The position numbers and the translations under genes were made by a program. This document shows, one piece after another, positions 362 to 44,064 of a stretch of DNA of 46,923 nt (position 1 is its first letter; each line of letters begins with the position of its first letter). The DNA comes from Candidatus Nomurabacteria bacterium (lineage in GTDB: Bacteria; Patescibacteriota; Minisyncoccia; Phycocordibacterales; UBA9973): assembly GCA_943354525.1 (NCBI GenBank), contig CALRCI010000001.1, positions 1 through 46,923 on the forward strand, read 5' to 3'. The notes under the pieces are model-generated. The model had not been told where the DNA came from and searched no databases. It was given only the letters and a program-made list of their open reading frames with translations.

Positions 362-485
362 GAACCCGTTTTGCATGAGACATTTTCTCCTGCGGCACGC
401 ATAAAATTCTGCTGAATTTTTGCTCTGGCTCGGCTACCCGCCTGCGCGAGACCTCCGGAGAAAATGTCTCATGCAAAACGGGTTC
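362..485 (-). repeat. Family-1 clamp element, copy A: 29-bp perfect arms (362-390 / 457-485) around a 66-nt conserved core (391-456)
   Basis: GAACCCGTTTTGCATGAGACATTTTCTCC and its exact reverse complement flank a core that matches the core at 30748-30813 at 55/66 positions (hand alignment, reverse complement). Confidence 0.85.
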
Positions 486-6427: not shown

Positions 6428-7060
6428 ATGTTATTTCATACATCAAACAAAGTGACAGATGCAGGGCGGGCGCAGGGAGTAGCGGAAGTGCTGGAGAATG
6501 CCAAGCCGGACAGTGATTTCTATATATTGGTCGTCGGAGCAATACTGCTCGCGGCGAGCGGAATATTGCTCGACAGCATTCCGGTGCTCATTGCGAGCAT
6601 GGTTGTTGCACCGCTCATGTGGCCGATTCTCGGACTCTCGCTCGGCATCAATTCCGGCGACACGAAGCTCATCGGCCGTTCCCTTTCCATGCTCGTCATA
6701 TCTATGATTGTGGCGCTCGGTGTGTCCGCGCTCGGCGCACATATCGCACTGCAGTATTTCGGCTGGAATCTCCAAGGCATCTTCATCTCCTTCTCGCCGA
6801 ATTATTTCTTTGACGTCTTCATTGCCGTGATTTCCGGCGCGATTGCGGCCTACGGGTTGGTGCGGACCAAAGTCGGCGGTGCGATGACTGGCATCGGTAT
6901 CGCCGTCTCGCTCATGCCGCCGCTCGTGGCAACCGGGATCGGACTGGTTACGTCAAAAATACTTTCAGAGAGCGCATTGATGATATTCGCGCTCAACGTT
7001 CTCGGCATTCTCATCGCCAGCTGTATCACATTCGCCATTCTCAAAGTTAAAAGCAAATAA
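6428..7060 (+). CDS. DUF389-like integral membrane protein (210 aa)
   Basis: Segment ILLDSIPVLIASMVVAPLMWPILGLSLGI resembles the DUF389/TIGR00341 core motif. Several TM helices. TATACT box 6 nt upstream of the ATG. Confidence 0.6.
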   Translation: MLFHTSNKVTDAGRAQGVAEVLENAKPDSDFYILVVGAILLAASGILLDSIPVLIASMVVAPLMWPILGLSLGINSGDTKLIGRSLSMLVISMIVALGVSALGAHIALQYFGWNLQGIFISFSPNYFFDVFIAVISGAIAAYGLVRTKVGGAMTGIGIAVSLMPPLVATGIGLVTSKILSESALMIFALNVLGILIASCITFAILKVKSK

Positions 7061-7097
7061 GCATAAAAAAATCCCGATGATCGGGATTTTTTTATGC
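7061..7097. terminator. bidirectional 17-bp hairpin between the DUF389 gene and mscL
   Basis: GCATAAAAAAATCCCGA-tga-TCGGGATTTTTTTATGC. Ends 1 nt before the mscL stop codon. Confidence 0.85.
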
Positions 7098-7388
7098 TTA
7101 TTTCGCTTCGAGTTTGAAGAGTTTCCGTGCGATAACGAAGACGATAATCGCGAGAATGAGGAAGTTGAGGAATGCGGCGAGAAATGAGCCGTACGCGAGA
7201 TGAACTGAGCCCATCGAGAGTGTGGCTTCTTTCCACGATTCCGAGCCAAAGATCGGTGCGAGAAGCGGCATGACTATATCGTTGACAAACGAGGTCACAA
7301 GGGTGGTCGCGGCAGCACCCATGACAAATGCGATGGCGAGAGAAATAATCTTGTATTCTCGGAGGAATTGTGCAAATTCTTTGATCAT
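7098..7388 (-). CDS. mscL: large-conductance mechanosensitive channel MscL, short form (96 aa)
   Basis: N-terminus MIKEFAQFLREYKIISLAIAFVMGAAATTLVTSFVNDIVMPLLAPIFG is the MscL TM1 signature. The C-terminal helical bundle is largely absent. Confidence 0.85.
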   Translation of the reverse strand: MIKEFAQFLREYKIISLAIAFVMGAAATTLVTSFVNDIVMPLLAPIFGSESWKEATLSMGSVHLAYGSFLAAFLNFLILAIIVFVIARKLFKLEAK

Positions 7389-11480: not shown

Positions 11481-11556
11481 GGAGGCTATGGTGTAACGGT
11501 TAACACTAGAGTTTGTGGAACTCTCGATCTGGGTTCGATTCCCAGTAGCCTCCCCA
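11481..11556 (+). tRNA. tRNA-His (anticodon GTG) with genome-encoded G-1 and CCA
   Basis: Hand-folded cloverleaf: G(-1)+GAGGCTA acceptor, D arm GTGT/ACAC, anticodon arm AGAGT-TTGTGGA-ACTCT, T arm CTGGG-TTCGATT-CCCAG, TAGCCTC-C-CCA. Confidence 0.9.
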
Positions 11557-11598
11557 CATGAAAAAATCCCCGTTGAGGGATTTTTTCATGTGGGGAGG
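11549..11598. terminator. bidirectional 22-bp hairpin sharing 8 nt with the tRNA-His 3' end
   Basis: CCTCCCCACATGAAAAAATCCC-cgttga-GGGATTTTTTCATGTGGGGAGG. Ends 1 nt before the PCD stop codon. Confidence 0.85.
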
Positions 11599-11934
11599 CT
11601 AGGCTTTGACTGGCAATGCATCTATCTTTGCCGCGAGGATGAAATCATTCTCGGAAAGGCCTTTGATTGAATGTGTCGAGAGGTCGAGACGAACACGATT
11701 GTAGAAAATATGAATATCTGGATGATGCCCTTCACCTTCGGCGATGTCGGCGACATCGCGCACGAAATCTATGGCGGTGACAAAATCTTTGAATATGAAT
11801 TCTCGCGAAATAGATTTGTAATCTTCGGCAACACTCCATTTCGGCACTTCGCGCGCATACACATGCGCCGTCGCATCATCGAATGGTTCCACTCCCCCTT
11901 CACATGCCGTGCATTTTTTTGAGGTGAGATCCAT
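11599..11934 (-). CDS. pterin-4-alpha-carbinolamine dehydratase (PCD/DCoH family)
   Basis: 111 aa with the family motif GEGHHPDIHIFYNRVRLDLSTHS. Confidence 0.9.
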   Translation of the reverse strand: MDLTSKKCTACEGGVEPFDDATAHVYAREVPKWSVAEDYKSISREFIFKDFVTAIDFVRDVADIAEGEGHHPDIHIFYNRVRLDLSTHSIKGLSENDFILAAKIDALPVKA

Positions 11935-14672: not shown

Positions 14673-14744
14673 GTCCCCGTAGTTAAATGGATATAACTGC
14701 GGACTTCTAAGCCGCTATTGTAGGTTCGATTCCTACCGGGGACA
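14673..14744 (+). tRNA. tRNA-Arg (anticodon TCT)
   Basis: GTCCCCG acceptor, D arm GTTA/TAAC, anticodon loop CTTCTAA (one A:G mismatch at the base of the stem), T arm GTAGG-TTCGATT-CCTAC, CGGGGAC-A. Confidence 0.85.
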
Positions 14745-14788
14745 CCCAAAGAGAAAACGCCAACTGCTTGGCGTTTTCTCTTTGGGTG
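14743..14788 (+). terminator. 21-bp hairpin after tRNA-Arg(TCT)
   Basis: CACCCAAAGAGAAAACGCCAA-ctgc-TTGGCGTTTTCTCTTTGGGTG. The left arm starts inside the tRNA. Confidence 0.8.
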
Positions 14789-14919
14789 TCGGGCGGAGCG
14801 ATGTCGAGCTAGCAAGCGAGACCGCGAGCCGGGCGATTAGTAAATCGTGCCGAGAGGCATTCAAGAAAAATTATGAGCGACGGCGAATAATTTATTCGTG
14901 ACCACATAAATCCTATTTA

Positions 14920-30521: not shown

Positions 30522-30719
30522 ATGGCAGAAGAACACAAAAAAAGCGCGGCAGTGCAAGACCTCATGTTTCTACTCGCCGCAATCATTATTGGATTCGTCA
30601 TCTGGTTCTACACCGGCGGTCCGGCACGCTTCAACAACAAGCCGTTCATCAAGCCAGCCGAGCCAATTGATTCCGGTGAGACATACGGACCAAGCACTCC
30701 GAATACGCAATTCCAGTAG
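30522..30719 (+). CDS. hypothetical small single-TM protein (65 aa)
   Basis: ORF 10 nt after fpg. TM LMFLLAAIIIGFVIWFY. Its stop codon lies inside the left arm of the clamp element. Confidence 0.45.
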   Translation: MAEEHKKSAAVQDLMFLLAAIIIGFVIWFYTGGPARFNNKPFIKPAEPIDSGETYGPSTPNTQFQ

Positions 30720-30845
30720 CACACAAGAAAATACAGATGATTTTTTATGAGACCGCGCGGAGGCGGGTAGCCGAGCTCGAGCAAAAATTCACCAGAATTT
30801 TATGCGTGTCGATTAAAAAATCATCTGTATTTTCTTGTGTGCTAC
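30716..30845 (+). repeat. Family-1 clamp element, copy B: 32-bp perfect arms (30716-30747 / 30814-30845) around a 66-nt core (30748-30813)
   Basis: GTAGCACACAAGAAAATACAGATGATTTTTTA and its exact reverse complement. Core is TGAGACCGCGCGGAGGCGGGTAGCCGAGCTCGAGCAAAAATTCACCAGAATTTTATGCGTGTCGAT. The arms include the stop codon of the small ORF upstream and the first nt of the SpoU stop codon. Confidence 0.9.
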
Positions 30846-31324
30846 TAATCTGTCAGCGCATAGAGCATAATACCAGTGGCAACAGAAACATTGAGCGATT
30901 CTTTTACACCGCGCATCGGAATCTCCGCGATCACGTCGCACTCCCCTAAAACTTTTTGAGACAGTCCCGTGACTTCCGTGCCGAGGATGAGCGCAGTTCT
31001 TTCTGTGCTTTTCACTTTTTTATAACTGACTGAATTTGTCGATTGTTCCAGTGCAACGATTCTGTAATTTTCTTTCTTGAGTTTTCGCAACAGTGGCGCA
31101 ATAGTCTTCACATGTTCCCACACAACTGAATCTTCTGCCCCGAGGGCACATTTATGAAAATCATTTCTCTTTCTTCCAAACCGATCGAGCGGTGTCGGAG
31201 TCGTCCCGATGAGGTATATCTTCCCTACTCCGGCCGCGTCGGCCGTACGAAAAATCGCTCCGACATTGTAGACGCTGCGGATATTATCGAGCACAAGGAT
31301 GATTTTATCGTTGATTTTAGGCAT
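30845..31324 (-). CDS. SpoU/TrmH-family RNA 2'-O-methyltransferase
   Basis: SVYNVGAIFRTADAAGV (motif 1) and IPMRGVKESLNVSVATGIMLY (motif 3). Start set at ATG 31324 (MPKINDKIILV...). Confidence 0.85.
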   Translation of the reverse strand: MPKINDKIILVLDNIRSVYNVGAIFRTADAAGVGKIYLIGTTPTPLDRFGRKRNDFHKCALGAEDSVVWEHVKTIAPLLRKLKKENYRIVALEQSTNSVSYKKVKSTERTALILGTEVTGLSQKVLGECDVIAEIPMRGVKESLNVSVATGIMLYALTD

Positions 31325-31758: not shown

Positions 31759-31802
31759 CCCCGTTGATAATTCACGACGGCCGTCGTGAATTATCAACGG
31801 GG
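31759..31802 (-). terminator. 22-bp loop-less palindrome after Cys-rich paralog 3, flanked by a C10 run
   Basis: CCCCGTTGATAATTCACGACGG/CCGTCGTGAATTATCAACGGGG. Confidence 0.7.
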
Positions 31803-31829: not shown

Positions 31830-33527
31830 CTAATTAGCTTCCTGCTGATAGCATGTTTCGCAATACACGATCTCCGACCGCTCAGGCACGTAACTTGTCT
31901 TGATTTCTTTTTCGCATTTCATGCAGAAGCGATCATAGAGCTGCGGCGGATTCACTGTGTTGAATCTCCGCTTGAATCTACACTTCCAGCATTTCACCGG
32001 GAACGGTACGCCGATCTTTCTATGCAGTTGAATCTCAAGCGTAGTAATTCTAAATCCTTTTTTACATTCAGCGCATTCTATAATTTCTTTTTGGATCGCA
32101 TCATCGATATCTGCTACTGTTTCAGGAACTTGGTCAGCGGTCATGGTCGTCGTATGTTCTGAATCAGGAATATCATGCCACTGCATCCCGCCCTCAATAA
32201 TTTCATTTTTTGAAAGCGGGAAATAATAATCAGCCATTGTTTCGTTGTACGCAAACGGTGAGAACATGAACGGGAAAAATTCTCCATAACTCCACACGCG
32301 GCCTTTCTCATCCGTATATGGATTTGTCTTCATGTCAGCAATAATCTTTTCCCGAAGCACTAGATATTCTTCTTTTGTATATTGCTTGTTGAGAATGCAG
32401 TATTGCTTGCGTTTGAGATTGTAGCAGCCAAAACAATCTTTGGATTGATTGGCATAAAAACAGTACTCCAGATTGAGGGCATTCGGCCAGCATTGCGCCG
32501 AGAAGTGGTCGTTGTATGCGCTCTCGCCCACGGTCAAACATTCGTATAAATTCTCCGCGCCATATCCCCAGTTAGTGTAATCATAACAATTCTTCGTCGG
32601 TCCCATCGTCAGCATCTGCACGAATCGCGAATCTTCAACACTCGAAACCATATATGAGTCTTTAGTGTTTTTCGATTCATAGATGAAATCACCGGTAGTA
32701 TTCACATTCAAGCCATTACCCGCAGTCGCCCGGCGAGGCTGTGTCATAAAGAATTCGCGTGATTGTTGAAGCATTGATTCGATCCCCTCGCGAGTATCAA
32801 GTCGCATTTCAGCAACTTTCTTTTTATACTCTTCCTTGCTGTATTGCTGATTGAAAATACAATTCGATTTATTGCGCAGATTTATGCACCCGACACAATC
32901 GACACAGCCTGAGCAGGAACGAGAAAAATGCGTATCAGTACATGAATCAAGCTCTTCGCTATATATGCAGTGATAACTCTTATACATTCCGACACATTCA
33001 TAACAGAGTTCGACTTCTTTGAAGCGATAGCCGTCCAATGAATCCGCCACATGGGCATAGACCATACAATACGCAGTACGCTCCCCATAATCGGCATTAA
33101 ATACCATGAAACAGTCTTTCTGATACGCTGTAGCGTTCACATAGGGTGAATTTACGAGCGTAGAATACAAATTTTCGATGGCCATGAAAGTAGATTTGTC
33201 TTTCAATTCAGCCAGTTGTTCAAAGAAATTTCGGTTCGGATCATAGTCCATGCCATATTCCGTGCCATCCCATGTATCTCCGAACCAGCATTTCGGACAG
33301 AACACACGATATGGCGTGCCGTCACGTAGATTTGAAATAATGGATTCATTGCAGTTCGCACAAGCTCTCTTATAGAGAGTAATCCAGTTCAGAAAGGCCA
33401 GCCGGCGCTGAAACCGACACCCAGGACACCATGTTGGCGGCGGAACATTTATTTTCTTATAGAAATTAAAATCATCCGGCTCGATCACGAAATCCTTTTT
33501 GCAGTTTTGGCAGTTTTTAGTTTCCAC
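31830..33527 (-). CDS. large cysteine-rich protein, paralog 3 (565 aa) with N- and C-terminal double zinc-ribbon modules; function unknown
   Basis: N-module CQNCKKDFVIEPDDFNFYKKINVPPPTWCPGCRFQRR...LYKRACANC...VFCPKCW. C-module CAECKKGFRITTLEIQLHRKIGVPFPVKCWKCRFKRR...LYDRFCMKC...VYCETCYQQE. GTG start 2 nt after the holA-like stop. Confidence 0.85.
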   Translation of the reverse strand: METKNCQNCKKDFVIEPDDFNFYKKINVPPPTWCPGCRFQRRLAFLNWITLYKRACANCNESIISNLRDGTPYRVFCPKCWFGDTWDGTEYGMDYDPNRNFFEQLAELKDKSTFMAIENLYSTLVNSPYVNATAYQKDCFMVFNADYGERTAYCMVYAHVADSLDGYRFKEVELCYECVGMYKSYHCIYSEELDSCTDTHFSRSCSGCVDCVGCINLRNKSNCIFNQQYSKEEYKKKVAEMRLDTREGIESMLQQSREFFMTQPRRATAGNGLNVNTTGDFIYESKNTKDSYMVSSVEDSRFVQMLTMGPTKNCYDYTNWGYGAENLYECLTVGESAYNDHFSAQCWPNALNLEYCFYANQSKDCFGCYNLKRKQYCILNKQYTKEEYLVLREKIIADMKTNPYTDEKGRVWSYGEFFPFMFSPFAYNETMADYYFPLSKNEIIEGGMQWHDIPDSEHTTTMTADQVPETVADIDDAIQKEIIECAECKKGFRITTLEIQLHRKIGVPFPVKCWKCRFKRRFNTVNPPQLYDRFCMKCEKEIKTSYVPERSEIVYCETCYQQEAN

Positions 33528-34735: not shown

Positions 34736-34770
34736 CTCCCCTGTGACTTGCCCGACAAGCGCTCCAGATA

Positions 34771-34815
34771 ATCTGTCGAAAACGCCAAGGCTAAGCCTTG
34801 GCGTTTTCGACAGAT
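34771..34815 (-). terminator. 21-bp hairpin abutting the polA stop codon
   Basis: ATCTGTCGAAAACGCCAAGGC-taa-GCCTTGGCGTTTTCGACAGAT. Confidence 0.8.
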
Positions 34816-37194
34816 TTATTTAATTTCCCCGTAATGCCGTCCCCGACCGGCGTGGACTGCGAGTGGAATATCGGTTTTGATGTGAAGATATGACTCAGGC
34901 AGGACATTGACCATTGATTCGGAAACGATTTTCTCGACTTGTTCGGCAACGTTGTTTTCGACTTCGTAGACTAGTTCGTCGTGGATCTGGAGAACAAGAT
35001 GGGCTTTGTCACTGAGACTGGCCTTGGCAAGAGCTTTCTCGGCGTGAATGATGGCGAGCTTCATGATGTCAGCAGCCGTGCCTTGAAGCGGTGCATTCGT
35101 AGCCGTGCGTTCGGCAAGTGCGCGCATAAACGGTAGCGATGAACGAATCGCCGGGAATTGTCGTTTGCGTCCAAAGAGTGTCAGCGTGTAGCCATGCGTG
35201 CGTGCGAATTCCTTTGTGCCTTCGAGATAGTCTCTGATTGTCGGAAACTGCCGAAAATAATTTTCATAGAAACTCTCCGCTTCGGCGCGCGATGAGCCGA
35301 GATTTTTGCGAAGCGCATTCACGCCCATGCCGTAGATGATGCCGAAGTTAATAACTTTCGCTCTGCGGCGCATATCATGATCCACTTTGTCTTGCGGAAC
35401 ATTGAAGACAAATGCGGCGACACCGGAGTGAACGTCTTTACCATCGCGGAAAATTTCTGACAATCGTTCGTCATGCGACATGAGCGCGAGCACGCGAAGT
35501 TCGATCTGCGAGTAGTCGAGCGCGACGAGTGTGTGCCCCGGCGCGGCAATGAAGCCATCGCGGATGGCGCGGCCGAGTTCGCTCTTGATCGGAATGTTCT
35601 GGAGATTCGGATTTTGCGATGAGAAACGTCCCGTCGCCGCACCGTGCTGGGAGAATGTCGCATGCAGTCTGCCGTCAGGACCGGTCATTTCCGGAATGAC
35701 GTCAATGTACGTCGAGAGTAATTTCTGCAATTCGCGGTACTTCATAATCTCGGCGATGATCGGGTGCGCGTCTTCAAGGCTCTCGAGCGCTTCGATCTTC
35801 GTCGTATATGTTCCTGTCGCGCTCTTCTTGCCGAGCGGTTTCAGACCGAGTTTGACGAAGAGAATTTCCGACATCTGCTTCGGAGAATTGATATTGAATT
35901 CCTCACCAGCGAGACGATAAATATTTTTCGTATAGGCATCGAGCGTCTTGTGATAGTCAGTTGAAAGTGTACTAAATACTTTTTTGTCTATCAGAATCCC
36001 TGTTTCTGTCATCTTCGTCACGATCGGCATGAGCGGCGCTTCGATTTCGTCGTACACTTCCTGTAATTTTTCCGTCTTCAATTTCGCAAAAATCTCCTTG
36101 CGCGCCTCGGCAAACGTACTTTTCTTCGTGTACGTGAGAATATCTTCAAGCGTCGGCGTCGTTTGTTCCGAATCGATGAGCCAAAGCGCAACTGAAGTTT
36201 CGAGAAGTTCCCGAGGAGAAATATCTTCCGTTGGTGTTTCTTCTATTGTTTCTTCGATTTTCTTCCCGCCGAATACTGTCTGCGCGCGACCAATGAGACT
36301 CTTGAATTCAAATTCTTTGAAAAGTGCCGTGATTTTCGCCATATCAATTTCTTCTCGAAATGATTTTTCCGGAATGACGAAATTAATCGGCGCATCACGA
36401 CGAATTGTGGCAAGTGTTTTCGAGAAGAGCGCTTCCTCTTCCCCATCCTTGAGCAGATTGAAAACTCGTTCAGTGATTCCTAATTTTTTAAATTTTTCTT
36501 CGGCGCCGGCTTTCTTGAGATCTTTGTACATAGCCTCGAGCGTGCCAAATTCATTGATGAGAATCGTCGCCGTCTTCTCGCCGACTCCGGCAATGCCGAT
36601 AATATTGTCTGACGGATCGCCACGCAAGCCTTTGTAGTCCGGCAAATATTTCGGTTTGAATCCGTAGCGTGTGACGACGGCGTCTTCATCGTAGAGGACA
36701 GTATCAGTCAGGCCTTTCTTCAACGTAAAGACTTGCACTTTTTTCCCCGTAACAAGCTGGAGCGTATCCATATCGCCCGAAGCGATTATGATTTCGATAT
36801 TCTTGTCATCTTTCATTTGCTCGACGATCGTACCGAGACAGTCGTCGGCTTCGAATCCTTCCTTGTCATAAATTGGAATTGAGAACGCTTCGAAAATTCT
36901 CCGTGAGGCGATAAGTTGCGAAACCAGTGCGTCATCAATCTTCGCGCGTTTGCCTTTGTATGCTTCGTACGCCTCATGGCGAAATGTCTTCTTCGGCAAG
37001 TCATAGCACGCCGCGACATAGTCGGGTTTGAGGTCGGTCACGATCTTCATGATCATCGTCGAGAGGCCGTAGAGCGCTCCTGTCGGCTCGCCCTTAGAGT
37101 CAGTAAATTCCGGCAAGGCATGATAGGCGCGATGAATAATCGCGTGCGAATCAAGCAGAATCAGGCGTTTTTTAGCGGATTTTGGAGTTGCCAT
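34816..37194 (-). CDS. polA: DNA polymerase I (5'-3' exonuclease + polymerase, 3'-5' exonuclease region nearly absent)
   Basis: 5'-nuclease N-terminus LILLDSHAIIHRAYHA. Pol motif A LVALDYSQIELRVLA, motif B RRRAKVINFGIIYGM, motif C VLQIHDELV. 792 aa. Confidence 0.95.
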   Translation of the reverse strand: MATPKSAKKRLILLDSHAIIHRAYHALPEFTDSKGEPTGALYGLSTMIMKIVTDLKPDYVAACYDLPKKTFRHEAYEAYKGKRAKIDDALVSQLIASRRIFEAFSIPIYDKEGFEADDCLGTIVEQMKDDKNIEIIIASGDMDTLQLVTGKKVQVFTLKKGLTDTVLYDEDAVVTRYGFKPKYLPDYKGLRGDPSDNIIGIAGVGEKTATILINEFGTLEAMYKDLKKAGAEEKFKKLGITERVFNLLKDGEEEALFSKTLATIRRDAPINFVIPEKSFREEIDMAKITALFKEFEFKSLIGRAQTVFGGKKIEETIEETPTEDISPRELLETSVALWLIDSEQTTPTLEDILTYTKKSTFAEARKEIFAKLKTEKLQEVYDEIEAPLMPIVTKMTETGILIDKKVFSTLSTDYHKTLDAYTKNIYRLAGEEFNINSPKQMSEILFVKLGLKPLGKKSATGTYTTKIEALESLEDAHPIIAEIMKYRELQKLLSTYIDVIPEMTGPDGRLHATFSQHGAATGRFSSQNPNLQNIPIKSELGRAIRDGFIAAPGHTLVALDYSQIELRVLALMSHDERLSEIFRDGKDVHSGVAAFVFNVPQDKVDHDMRRRAKVINFGIIYGMGVNALRKNLGSSRAEAESFYENYFRQFPTIRDYLEGTKEFARTHGYTLTLFGRKRQFPAIRSSLPFMRALAERTATNAPLQGTAADIMKLAIIHAEKALAKASLSDKAHLVLQIHDELVYEVENNVAEQVEKIVSESMVNVLPESYLHIKTDIPLAVHAGRGRHYGEIK

Positions 37195-37651: not shown

Positions 37652-37689
37652 AAAAAGAAAAACAGCGCATATGCGCTGTTTTTCTTTTT
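37652..37689 (-). terminator. 19-bp loop-less palindrome after the 681-aa surface protein gene
   Basis: AAAAAGAAAAACAGCGCAT/ATGCGCTGTTTTTCTTTTT. Confidence 0.8.
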
Positions 37690-39754: not shown

Positions 39755-39884
39755 CGCCCCGAATTCTTTCCTGATCTGATTTTTTAATCGACACGCATAA
39801 TTTCTTGCTAGAAATTTGCTGGAGCTCGGCTACCCGCCTCCGCGCGGTCTCATAAAAAATCAGATCAGGAAAGAATTCGGGGCG
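39755..39884 (-). repeat. Family-1 clamp element, copy C: 32-bp perfect arms (39755-39786 / 39853-39884) around a 66-nt core (39787-39852)
   Basis: CGCCCCGAATTCTTTCCTGATCTGATTTTTTA and its exact reverse complement. Core reverse complement is 56/66 identical to copy B, with 4 compensatory pair swaps in the internal hairpin. Confidence 0.9.
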
Positions 39885-41857: not shown

Positions 41858-43558
41858 ATGGTGACCTTCGACGATGACAAGCAGAATAAAAAAGTTGACG
41901 AATTGCGCCGCGAGGAAGAGGAGGAGCTCGTTCGTATGCTCGCCGAGGAGAAATATGGCCTCCCCTACGCCAATTTGATGACGGCAAGCATCGATAATGA
42001 GGCCCTTCGTTATATCGATGAGGATGTTGCCCGCGCGCAGAAGATTGCGCCGTTCAAAATTCTCGGCAAGAACATCGATATCGCCATTCATACTCCAGAA
42101 AATCCCGAACTCGAACATGTGCGTGCCGATCTCGAACGCAAAGGACTCCATGCGAATTTTTCCATGGCTTCGATGCAGAGTTTGGAAAAAGCATGGGCGC
42201 GATATGCTGAAATTTCTCATGCAACAGTCTCGCGCGTCGGCGGACTCGATATTTCGGGCAGCGATTTGAAAAAACTTTCTGATGAATTGCACACGACGGC
42301 CGATGTTGCGAGTACTGTTGCGGAAACACTCAAAGAAAACAAGACGCATACCGTCTCGATGGTGTACGAAATTATTCTCGCCGGTGCAATCGGCATCAAC
42401 GCATCTGATATTCACTTCGAACCGGAAGAAGATCATGTGCGCATGCGCTATCGTCTCGACGGCGTGCTCCAGGATATTCTCTCAATCGATCAGAAGACAT
42501 ACAAGCTCCTCCACTCACGTATCAAACTGATTTCCGGAATGAAACTCACGTCGGACAATATCGCGCAGGATGGGCGTTTCAGTATCTTTCTCGGCGACGA
42601 AGAAATCAGTGTGCGTGTCTCGGCAATTCCGGGCGCGTACGGTGAATCAATCGTGCTCCGAATACTGAATCCGAAATCCATCCAAGTCGAACTCGAAAGT
42701 ATGGGCATTGATCCGAAATTATTCGAAGTTATCAATCGCGAGATCAAGAAACCAAACGGCATGATTCTCCTGACTGGTCCGACCGGTTCCGGTAAGACGA
42801 CGACGCTCTATGCCTTCATTCGCCGGATCTACTCTCCTGAAATAAAGATCATCACCATCGAAGATCCAATCGAATACCACCTCGCCGGAATCACGCAGAC
42901 ACAGACAGACAATGAGCATGGCTATACATTCATCGAAGGTCTCCGCTCCGCACTCCGCCAAGACCCAGATGTCATCATGGTCGGTGAAATTCGTGACTCA
43001 GAGACGGCAAAAATCGCCGTTGAGTCCGCGCTCACTGGCCACATGGTCTTCTCGACGCTCCACACGAACAATGCTGCCGGAGTCATCCCCCGCCTGATCG
43101 ATCTCGAAGTGAATCCGAAGATTCTTGTCTCAGCACTGACGCTCTCCATCGCCCAGCGTCTCGTGCGCAAACTCTGCCCGGACTGCAAAAAAGAACTTGA
43201 AGTTCCGGAAAAAGATAAAACGCTGATGGCTGGCATCATCGCGCATGCAATCGATGTGGGCAAAGATCTCTCGCGCTACAATCTGACAAAAGAAACGCCG
43301 ATCAAACTCTGGGGTCCAATCGGCTGTGACAAATGCAATAAGACTGGGTACAAAGGACGCATCGGCGTCTTCGAAGCGATTCTCACTGATGAAGCGATTG
43401 GTAAAATCATGCCAAGCAATCCAAGTGAGCGTGAAATCGAGAAAGTCGCCGAGACACAAGGCATTCTCAACATGCGCGAAGACGGTGTCGTAAAAATCCT
43501 CTCCGGTGTCACCTCTCTCGAAGAAGTGCGGAGTGTAGTGGAGATGGAAGAGAATTAA
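41858..43558 (+). CDS. pilB: type II secretion/type IV pilus assembly ATPase (GspE/PilB family)
   Basis: Walker A LLTGPTGSGKTTTL, Walker B region DPDVIMVGEIRD, His box, tetracysteine motif CPDCKK...CDKCNKTGYKGR. Confidence 0.95.
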   Translation: MVTFDDDKQNKKVDELRREEEEELVRMLAEEKYGLPYANLMTASIDNEALRYIDEDVARAQKIAPFKILGKNIDIAIHTPENPELEHVRADLERKGLHANFSMASMQSLEKAWARYAEISHATVSRVGGLDISGSDLKKLSDELHTTADVASTVAETLKENKTHTVSMVYEIILAGAIGINASDIHFEPEEDHVRMRYRLDGVLQDILSIDQKTYKLLHSRIKLISGMKLTSDNIAQDGRFSIFLGDEEISVRVSAIPGAYGESIVLRILNPKSIQVELESMGIDPKLFEVINREIKKPNGMILLTGPTGSGKTTTLYAFIRRIYSPEIKIITIEDPIEYHLAGITQTQTDNEHGYTFIEGLRSALRQDPDVIMVGEIRDSETAKIAVESALTGHMVFSTLHTNNAAGVIPRLIDLEVNPKILVSALTLSIAQRLVRKLCPDCKKELEVPEKDKTLMAGIIAHAIDVGKDLSRYNLTKETPIKLWGPIGCDKCNKTGYKGRIGVFEAILTDEAIGKIMPSNPSEREIEKVAETQGILNMREDGVVKILSGVTSLEEVRSVVEMEEN

Positions 43559-43582
43559 AAAATCCCCTCTAGGGGATTTTTT
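43557..43582 (+). terminator. 12-bp hairpin plus T-run after pilB
   Basis: AAAAAATCCCCT-ct-AGGGGATTTTTT. Confidence 0.8.
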
Positions 43583-43588
43583 GGTTTC

Positions 43589-43752
43589 GCCATCCTAAAA
43601 ATTCTTTCTTAAATTTTGTTTTTAAGATCGCAACGATTCTGTATGCGTCTTTTGTAATTTCCGTGCAAGACTTGAACCATTCGAAAAATGAATGGATCGT
43701 GAGGTTGCTCGGGCTCATTAAAAAAAATTTAAGAAAGAATTTTTAGGATGGC
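43589..43752 (+). repeat. Family-2 clamp element, copy 2: 29-bp perfect arms (43589-43617 / 43724-43752), a few extra imperfect pairs, and a ~92-nt core (43626-43717)
   Basis: GCCATCCTAAAAATTCTTTCTTAAATTTT and its exact reverse complement. The core shares the blocks TCGCAACGAT.CTGTAT.CGT, TTCCGTGCAAGACT and AGGTTGCTCGG.CTCA with copy 1. Confidence 0.85.
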
Positions 43753-44064
43753 TCAGGCAAAATAAAAAAGCATAAATCTCCAAACAATCCTTATGGCAAT
43801 AGATGTCATAAGTAACACAATCTTAAAGGATGGCCCCAGCGAACTAATTAAAGAAGCCAAAACGTCCTTTGCGAAGGTATATAACGGAACCGCTGATTGC
43901 TTAGAGATTCATGCTCTCTTCTCGTTGAATCTCAGTATATATTAAAAAATGTACTTCGCTTCCGGCGAAGTGGTATACTCTGGGCATATCGTGTGTATAA
44001 ACCTGTTCTGGGAAGAGCATAGCATAGATGCTAAAATAAGTCAATAGCACCAAGCTCGTACGCC

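Follow-up and report, generated by a model that had tools for sequence, protein, structure and literature searches.

What builds a long, perfectly complementary stem around a conserved sequence when the stem itself differs from one locus to the other? This question is raised by two intergenic repeats, here called family 2, in a 46,923-nt stretch of the genome of a Candidatus Nomurabacteria bacterium (contig CALRCI010000001.1, the whole stretch being referred to as the window). The repeats lie at positions 43589–43752 on the forward strand (copy B) and 1992–2147 (copy A, whose core is read on the reverse strand), measure 156–164 nt in total, and consist of a conserved 92-nt core enclosed by long arms that pair perfectly with each other. 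Contigs L001 and L091 prolong the window to ~55.3 kb, up to dnaN and dnaA, and this longer stretch carries the two family-2 copies and four copies of another repeat, family 1, which has the same architecture of a core held between long arms. The explanation that we tentatively favor is that family 2 is a lineage-restricted, structured module that probably acts as RNA, and that a palindrome-perfecting process operating on DNA throughout the genome has extended its basal helix and held it to strict Watson-Crick pairing.

Two diverged cores within perfect arms

The family-2 cores, at positions 43626–43717 (+) in copy B and 2024–2115 (−) in copy A, are each 92 nt long and align without gaps once the latter is reverse-complemented. 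A first-pass annotation, produced by a model that saw only the sequence, had put the number of identical positions at about 64 by hand count; the exact figure is 64 of 92, and the alignment is far better than those of 20,000 shuffled controls (shuffle mean 23.5, maximum 42; z = 9.7). A covariance model, R1, scores the cores of copies B and A at 128.5 and 130.7 bits, respectively. Three blocks, TCGCAACGATnCTGTATnCGT, TTCCGTGCAAGACT and AGGTTGCTCGGnCTCA, are identical in both copies, just as that annotation had described, and they are restricted to these two loci in the window even when two to three mismatches are permitted. In copy B, block 1 (TCGCAACGATTCTGTATGCGT, positions 43628–43648, with two window matches at three or fewer mismatches where none is expected by chance) is followed by block 2 (43659–43672) and block 3 (AGGTTGCTCGGGCTCA, 43702–43717); the corresponding blocks of copy A occupy positions 2093–2113, 2069–2082 and 2024–2039 on the reverse strand. 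The 28 differences between the cores sit in the 10-nt spacer separating blocks 1 and 2 and in the hairpin region, and the mismatches are clustered, the three longest runs of identity adding up to 35 positions (p = 0.0085).

The hairpin region contains a stem with an A-rich loop at the same position in both copies (43677–43695 in copy B and 2047–2065 in copy A), formed by different stem sequences, CCATTC-GAAAAAT-GAATGG in copy B and AGA(A)TAT/GTATCT in copy A. This feature, too, is as first annotated, with the refinement that the two 3′ strands are offset by one alignment column.

The arms of copy B (43589–43617, 29 nt, GCCATCCTAAAAATTCTTTCTTAAATTTT, and 43724–43752) form 29 perfectly complementary base pairs, and those of copy A (2116–2147, TCCCACAAAAAATAAATTAGATTTGGTTTTAG, the 5′ arm in the orientation of the element, and 1992–2023, the 32-nt 3′ arm) form 32. 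In copy B, the strand at 43618–43625 (a GU bulge followed by UUUUAA) pairs with UUAAAA at 43718–43723, adding six pairs beyond the 2-nt bulge and carrying the clamp into the unit shared by the two copies, and with such bulged extensions the perfect duplexes reach ~35–41 pairs. The arms had been described as perfect and unrelated, and of this the perfection stands. Their inner ~15 nt are weakly alignable (p = 0.01 on the left and p = 0.36, not significant, on the right), and therefore only the outer 12–20 bp of the A and B arms are clearly unrelated. Two compensatory pair changes distinguish the copies in the inner stem adjoining the core. The unit common to both copies is thus the 92-nt core together with a short, A/T-rich inner stem.

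Neither base-pairing targets nor partial copies of the blocks were found elsewhere in the window. A coding peptide was rejected, as no conserved open reading frame (ORF) is present on either strand of the element. An assembly artefact was likewise rejected, since the sequences of both loci agree fully in two independent ENA assemblies, which carry genes on both sides of them.

Long perfect stems throughout the genome

The unique perfect clamp had at first been read as a design used by two unrelated cores and as the mark of a common generating mechanism. As evidence for a mechanism specific to these elements, the clamp does not support that view, because plain hairpins elsewhere in the genome carry it too. 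The 47-kb window contains five short-loop perfect palindromes with arms of at least 22 bp, compared with 14 in 1.32 Mb of DNA from relatives, which corresponds to densities of 10.7 and 1.1 per 100 kb (Poisson p = 1.7e-4). The 80 best related GTDB loci come from metagenome-assembled genomes of Paceibacteria, Nomurabacteria or Parcubacteria whose PilB proteins are 52–66% identical to that of the window. For clamp-type repeats the counts are five in the window and 10 in the relatives (p = 3.5e-5). A perfect stem is therefore no trademark of family 2, and the common cause is more likely to be a genome-wide process, or genome-wide selection on any hairpin, than anything particular to the element.

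Terminators with the conventional layout of A-tract, stem and T-tract bear extra perfect, locus-specific outer arms at positions 7055–7103, 11546–11601, 14741–14790 and 34770–34816. The 25-bp perfect palindrome at 11546–11601, with its terminator inside, has a left arm that covers the last 11 nt of tRNA-His, from the first base of its 3′ acceptor strand through CCA, and a right arm whose outer 11 nt are an inverted copy of this tRNA end and which finishes on the stop codon of an intact, convergent pterin-4a dehydratase ORF (11599–11934). Given that the end of tRNA-His is constrained, the opposite arm must be the copy. A comparable case occurs among the relatives, where one (3′) arm of the hairpin in locus L027 departs from the state found in L022 and L040, of which L026 and L044 have close variants, by approximately four clustered changes, and these changes match it to the 5′ arm.

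The family-1 elements, at window positions 362–485, 30715–30846 and 39755–39884 and at L001 13695–13822, just upstream of dnaA, indicate which part of such an element is copied. Between 362 and L001:13695, and between 30715 and 39755, the core and the inner ~10 nt of each arm are 91–92% identical, and the outer arms are unrelated. It follows that the copied unit is the core plus a short stem, with the long outer arm added locally. At 30715–30846 the arms overlap two convergent ORFs at their stop codons. Over all six elements, ~185 bp of arms include a single G·U pair and no mismatch.

Template switching at quasipalindromes is a mutational route by which hairpins are created and perfected, as reported by Ripley and by Lovett for E. 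coli and by Monttinen and Loytynoja (PNAS, 2022). The stems described here resemble what such events would leave behind, in that they are perfect and end abruptly, in that restoring changes of several bases fall on one arm (L027), and in that one arm has been copied from the end of tRNA-His, with the proviso that the two supporting cases (11546–11601 and L027) are other hairpins and not family 2 itself. We know of no description of genome-wide growth of perfect 22–33-bp stems around both terminators and structured elements. Taken together, the arms point to a mechanism at the DNA level that extends stems and enforces Watson-Crick pairing, and they are explained less well by selection at the RNA level alone.

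Three other observations concern palindromes of the window. The one at 14741–14790 is similar to that at 11546–11601 and overlaps the 3′ end of tRNA-Arg. It is followed, 3′ of tRNA-Arg at 14791–14900, by G+C-rich, structured-looking intergenic DNA (GGGCGGAGCGATGTCGAGCTAGCAAGCGAGACCGCGAGCCGGGCG...CCGAGAGGC...AAAAATTATGAGCG) with motifs recalling family 1 (GCGGAG, CCGAG and AAATTATG), which is called neither by Rfam nor by the family-1 profile. Finally, two palindromes, at 31759–31802 and 37652–37689, are formally loopless; the former, a perfect 44-bp palindrome of CCCCGTTGATAATTCACGACGG abutting CCGTCGTGAATTATCAACGGGG, has no A or T tracts, resembles a clamp that lacks a core, and lies just past the conventional terminator of a reverse-strand gene at 31830–33527.

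Folding and possible function of the core

When folded whole, the elements are much more stable than shuffled sequences (z = −9.9 and −10.8). These values stem from the arms, because the cores by themselves give only z = −1.2 to −1.65. Within the core, block 3 provides a shared 3′ strand, GUUGCUCGG, with alternative upstream partners in blocks 1 and 2. In one helix, P1, it pairs with (GA)GUC-GCAAC at the 5′ end of the core, leaving a UCG bulge; in the other, P2, CCG-U-GCAA in block 2 pairs with UUGC-U-CGG. The pairing of GCAAC with GTTGC noted in the first-pass annotation, which involves blocks 1 and 3, is thus possible and is rivaled by an equally conserved alternative, with no covariation to support it. 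P1 and P2 are mutually exclusive, and both are invariant between copies A and B. Together with the blockwise conservation, the two competing helices suggest a protein-binding or switching element.

By analogy with family 1, a role as RNA appears most likely for the core. The two families have the same architecture and share a genomic slot, as seven relatives have a family-1-like element where copy B lies in the window, past pilB and ahead of a conserved ~150-nt RNA; in those relatives it is the sole terminator-like hairpin after pilB. Their basal layouts are also alike by eye, with a 3-bp GNC helix, a short bulge in the 3′ strand and a helix of 4–5 bp. The inner hairpin of family 1, GCAAAUUUCU-AGCA-AGAAAUUAUGC, covaries, showing double changes in eight of its 10 pairs as well as G·U pairs. 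Family 1 is widespread, whereas family 2 is found only in this genome, and no homology between the cores is detectable. Homology of the two families was considered, since on one strand each has CCGAGC(A)A and, after it, a hairpin rich in A and U, but their profiles fail to cross-detect.

Under the explanation that we favor, the core would be a functional module, most probably one that acts as RNA once the intergenic region has been transcribed, and the long basal helix would make it a self-contained folding domain. Duplexes of at least 20 bp are classic substrates of RNase III, and the flanks of family 2 supply 29–32 bp. A perfect duplex of ~30–37 bp would be an excellent substrate for this enzyme and a barrier to 3′ exonucleases; cleavage of the stem could free the core as a small RNA of ~100–120 nt, or could part the upstream mRNA from the downstream one in the manner of rRNA processing stems. 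The RNase III processing stems of rRNAs and of some small RNAs indeed resemble family 2 in placing a locus-specific helix, of which only the pairing is needed, around a conserved core. Family 2 differs from these natural stems in that its arms are perfectly Watson-Crick, its 92-nt core is present in two diverged copies, and its cleavage is a prediction. The outer arms, on the other hand, would have been made neither by the element nor for it. Instead, a DNA-level process that works on every hairpin of the genome would copy one flank, in inverted complement, onto the other, such that the stem grows outward and mismatches are erased, until growth halts at flanking functional sequence that cannot be overwritten. 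Judging from the patterns left in the arms, intra-strand template switching is a candidate mechanism for this process, as is hairpin-templated repair.

Several observations weigh against this explanation. The core alone is not significantly stable on either strand, and two copies are too few to lend covariation support to any helix inside it. The orientations of A and B are inconsistent with respect to the likely direction of transcription: copy B lies forward within the pilB–RNA–ruvB unit and copy A is reversed, both being located behind terminators on the forward strand, an arrangement that fits poorly with a strand-specific RNA dependent on the transcription of host genes. It may be that orientation is uninformative, as L043 and L022 have homologous family-1 arms around cores of opposite orientation, which implies that cores flanked by inverted repeats invert over evolutionary time. 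Moreover, two of the relatives (L018 and L072) are likewise rich in long palindromes, and thus the process is not unique to the lineage of the window. Lastly, the perfection of the arms could instead mean that these are young insertions.

Should the core prove to be a functional RNA, it would represent a new non-coding family for bacteria of the candidate phyla radiation (CPR), whose RNA biology is almost unknown. By itself, family 2 is a small family, and the growth of hairpins across the genome is the more notable lead. Such stems enclose plain terminators as well as elements unrelated to one another, and they have even overwritten sequence beside a tRNA and a stop codon. These observations suggest that long hairpins can be built across a reduced genome by a mutational process, and not by selection on each element, which would offer a natural system in which to ask whether template switching creates RNA hairpins.

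Alternative explanations

An alternative that we regard as unlikely is that families 1 and 2 are small non-autonomous mobile DNA that inserts at the dyads of palindromes or duplicates the target flank in inverted form, leaving arms that are perfect because they are young. The near-identical family-1 cores in unrelated outer arms imply copy-and-paste of the core plus inner stem, six elements are present within ~55 kb, and the coreless palindrome at 31759–31802 resembles an empty or excised site. Exchange between copies is also indicated for family 1, whose hairpin variants have been shuffled across core subfamilies. However, no transposase, reverse transcriptase or recombinase was found among the flanking ORFs that were scanned, and no direct target-site duplication is apparent, the flanks being ggtttc/tcaggc for copy B and tagata/ggcggc for copy A. 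The family-2 copies are 30% diverged, and their arms are perfect nonetheless. The arms are also unlike the terminators of this genome, lacking the layout of A-tract, G+C-rich stem and T-tract, which excludes insertion into terminator loops. Furthermore, terminators have been extended without any core, so that a core-independent process of palindrome formation is required in any event, and the synteny of family 1 across genera fits function better than selfish spread. We attach a similarly low probability to the proposition that either this CPR lineage has an unusually active process, by template switching or hairpin-templated repair, which extends and perfects palindromes and would enclose all structured intergenic elements (terminators, tRNA 3′ flanks and copied modules such as families 1 and 2) in long locus-specific stems growing up to functional sequence, or the cores are mobile modules of a new kind whose integration duplicates the target inversely; in either event, the result would be a form of genome-wide hairpin creation not previously described in bacteria.

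It is improbable that the element is a small-RNA gene on the reverse strand, in which blocks 2 and 1 would serve as the −35 and −10 elements (TTGCAC-N17-TATACA or CATACA), the 17-nt spacer would contain the 10 variable bases, and a transcript of ~90–105 nt would run from block 1 through one arm to the adjacent bidirectional terminator. The succession of a conserved hexamer, a variable spacer of constant length and another conserved hexamer is promoter-like, the block-1 side faces a bidirectional terminator 6–14 nt past the arm in both copies, and this orientation is certainly transcribed at copy A. Against these points, the hexamers are weak, matching at 6–7 of 12 positions with neither the near-invariant T in the sixth position of the −10 element nor a TG extension, and they are not called by a promoter scan, whereas the ruvB promoters of this clade have a clear TGnTATAAT or TATACT. 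Such a gene would also give no account of block 3, of the hairpin or of the complementary arm upstream, and placement on the same side in two copies has a 50% chance of being coincidental.

Selection at the RNA level could in principle have maintained the arms without any homogenization of the DNA, with the stems acting as RNase III processing sites or as protective 3′ structures; we judge this slightly more improbable still. Besides the suitability of such duplexes for RNase III, it is favored by the closing helix of the ~150-nt RNA and by the family-1 stems of relatives, which evolve by compensatory change and contain G·U pairs. Selection of this kind, however, tolerates G·U pairs and occasional mismatches, in contrast to the near-perfect ~185 bp of arms reported above. 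It also offers no obvious benefit for a terminator stem that reaches into the 3′ end of tRNA-His, acceptor strand and CCA included, and would compete with folding of the tRNA, nor does it account for palindromes that have no loop (31759–31802 and 37652–37689).

Very little probability attaches to an element that acts as DNA, whether as a protein-binding site, a cruciform or an inverton flipped between its inverted repeats. The copies are oriented inconsistently to transcription, family 1 shows opposite core orientations in L043 and L022 at one site and between homologous arms, and the blocks are sequence-specific in a core that is itself weakly structured, all of which would suit such an element. 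Spacers of 92–106 nt, however, disfavor cruciform extrusion. Of the features of an inverton, inverted repeats are present, but no invertase or recombinase lies nearby, the promoter-like pattern in the core is too weak to be convincing, and the window and the two ENA assemblies agree in showing a single orientation.

A retron-like non-coding RNA, with an architecture of the a1/a2 type around an msr/msd-like region, is scarcely credible, since the likeness of the 156–164-nt elements to retron msr-msd loci, long locus-specific terminal inverted repeats around a structured non-coding region of similar size, extends to many other hairpin elements and is not diagnostic, and a retron needs an adjacent reverse transcriptase, which is found beside neither copy.

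Relationship to known RNAs and repeats

Known RNA families do not account for family 2. A scan of the window with Rfam 15 at gathering thresholds returned seven tRNAs and nothing else, and permissive scans of both loci gave only generic matches to plant miRNA precursors and long hairpins, at 25–38 bits against thresholds of 80–195, which rules out a known ribozyme, riboswitch or small RNA. Searches of phages and plasmids with blastn returned nothing beyond A/T-rich, low-complexity arm fragments. No known non-coding RNA or mobile-element family thus matches the element, and a literature search yielded nothing relevant.

Further copies, which might have revealed conserved arm termini, were not found in the databases and related loci searched. 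A strict two-block pattern had no match among genomes representing each GTDB species, and three patterns had none in IMG/VR; the two-block pattern matched seven times in JGI metagenomes, in each case by chance within G+C-rich coding sequence. Searches with nhmmer and with covariance model R1 of 1.39 Mb of related loci and the rest of the ~55-kb contig gave nothing better than E = 5. Family 2 is an undescribed non-coding repeat, so far confined to one lineage.

One hairpin among the relatives, at L075 4718–4820 (Parcubacteria GW2011_GWA1_40_21), has 24-bp perfect arms and an inner stem, GGUC-GCAAAA/UUUUGC-UC-GACC, that mirrors the basal P1 helix of family 2, with a UC bulge in the matching place. 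On the basis of this similarity it may be a minimal relative of family 2, homology not being established and a rough estimate of the probability of chance resemblance being ~1e-3. A third family of clamp-type cores occurs at L017 4193–4296 and L045 3386–3485, with perfect arms of 20–21 bp and the core pattern AGGAGTCTTCGC...CCAGAAA...CTTGCCCT.CCA.GACAGA.TGC..ACGACGG.

Family 2 joins the hairpin-closed, intergenic non-coding repeats, among which arms that are locus-specific instead of conserved are unusual. Like the miniature inverted-repeat transposable elements (MITEs) Correia/NEMIS of Neisseria, ERIC and RUP, it is a short intergenic repeat that would form long hairpins in transcripts, and Correia hairpins are cut by RNase III. 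MITEs, however, have conserved terminal inverted repeats, target duplications and many copies, whereas family 2 has locus-specific termini, no duplication and two known copies. Comparison of A with B revealed no conserved terminal inverted repeats, and this contrast with MITEs draws on ~55 kb of genome that contains two family-2 copies and, in the ORFs scanned, no transposase. The example cautions that perfect inverted repeats need not be the termini of a transposon.

REP/REPIN sequences are likewise palindromic intergenic repeats, often near gene ends, but their arms are conserved and their spacer is variable, the reverse of the situation in family 2; no match to a RAYT/Y1-transposase was found among the window ORFs scanned. 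A similar inversion of the pattern separates family 2, with variable ends and a conserved center, from the attC sites of integrons, which have conserved outer R and L boxes and a variable center, and no integron integrase was detected in the ORFs scanned.

Genomic setting and neighboring elements

The repeats belong to an uncultivated Paceibacteria/Nomurabacteria-like member of the CPR. The exact PilB sequence of the window is present in only three contigs, two from ENA metagenomes and one, of 55,983 bp, from NCBI. The best PilB match in a set of 5.8 billion proteins has 67% identity, from which we conclude that the lineage is isolated. Even the closest pairs among the relatives have no more than 79% DNA identity.

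The neighbors of the two copies encode PilB, RuvB, SWIB, TspO and a 210-aa protein with no family match. Copy B is located 6 nt past the terminator of pilB (T2SSE) and 16 nt ahead of the conserved ~150-nt RNA that precedes ruvB. Copy A lies between the ORF for the 210-aa protein (1354–1986, +), to which it has the opposite orientation, and the SWIB terminator, from which it is 14 nt distant. The pilB terminator (43557–43582, AAAAAATCCCC-TCTA-GGGGATTTTTT) and the SWIB terminator (2162–2197, AATAGAAAAATCCGGC-CTAA-GCCGGATTTTTCTATT) are both palindromic and bidirectional, and both lie outside the repeats. The initial description, which placed each copy immediately after the terminator of a co-oriented gene, is borne out by these distances of 6–14 nt and has to be amended for copy A, which also follows the stop codon of the convergent ORF by 6 nt. 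A terminator function of the element itself, which at the outset had been considered unnecessary, was rejected, since no U-tract follows the stem; no T-run is present after either arm on either strand, and a terminator scan of these loci calls only the neighboring pilB and SWIB terminators.

Family 1, as identified with nhmmer, is widespread in Paceibacteria and not lineage-specific, and it is often found between pilB and the ~150-nt RNA. Its homologues occur in L010, L016, L022, L026, L027 (two copies), L032, L038, L040, L041, L043, L044, L051 and L057. In relatives, the family-1 arms span 5–29 bp, carry one to three mismatches in eight of 15 cases and are partly conserved (AATAGTCTTATCAGAGGGG...). 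Mosaic regions are observed at 391–456, 30748–30813 and 39787–39852 in the window and at L001 13722–13795, where the hairpin variants AAAAATTC-AsCA-GAATTTT and AAATTTCT-AGCA-AGAAATT are reassorted among elements of the two core subfamilies (TGAGACCGCGCGG... and GGAGGTCTCGCGC...), which implies recombination or gene conversion between copies.

The conserved ~150-nt structured RNA, at 43768–43919 (+) downstream of pilB and before ruvB in the window, is present in 69 of the 80 related loci (for example, at L021 11296–11444). It lies on the pilB strand in 68 of these 69, the exception, L080, being the weakest match. Its closing stem, CATAAATCTCTAAACAATC/GATTGCTTAGAGATTTATG, surrounds an invariant AGGAT...ACGTCCT core, and double compensatory changes are seen in 13 of 24 predicted pairs. 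No Rfam family matches it at E ≤ 1. As it starts 13–30 nt past the pilB stop codon in many relatives, this RNA is probably derived from a 3′ untranslated region. A 6S-like RNA is one possible candidate for its identity, and a 50-aa ORF called over it (43793–43945) is probably spurious.

Upstream of ruvB, the reverse strand at 43945–44044 carries a promoter-like TTGACT-17-TATGCT sequence with a TG extension (44044–44016), followed by a unidirectional terminator-like hairpin (43971–43953 plus a T-run). From its sequence, this arrangement could give rise to a tiny antisense transcript over the ruvB promoter region (TGGTATACT).

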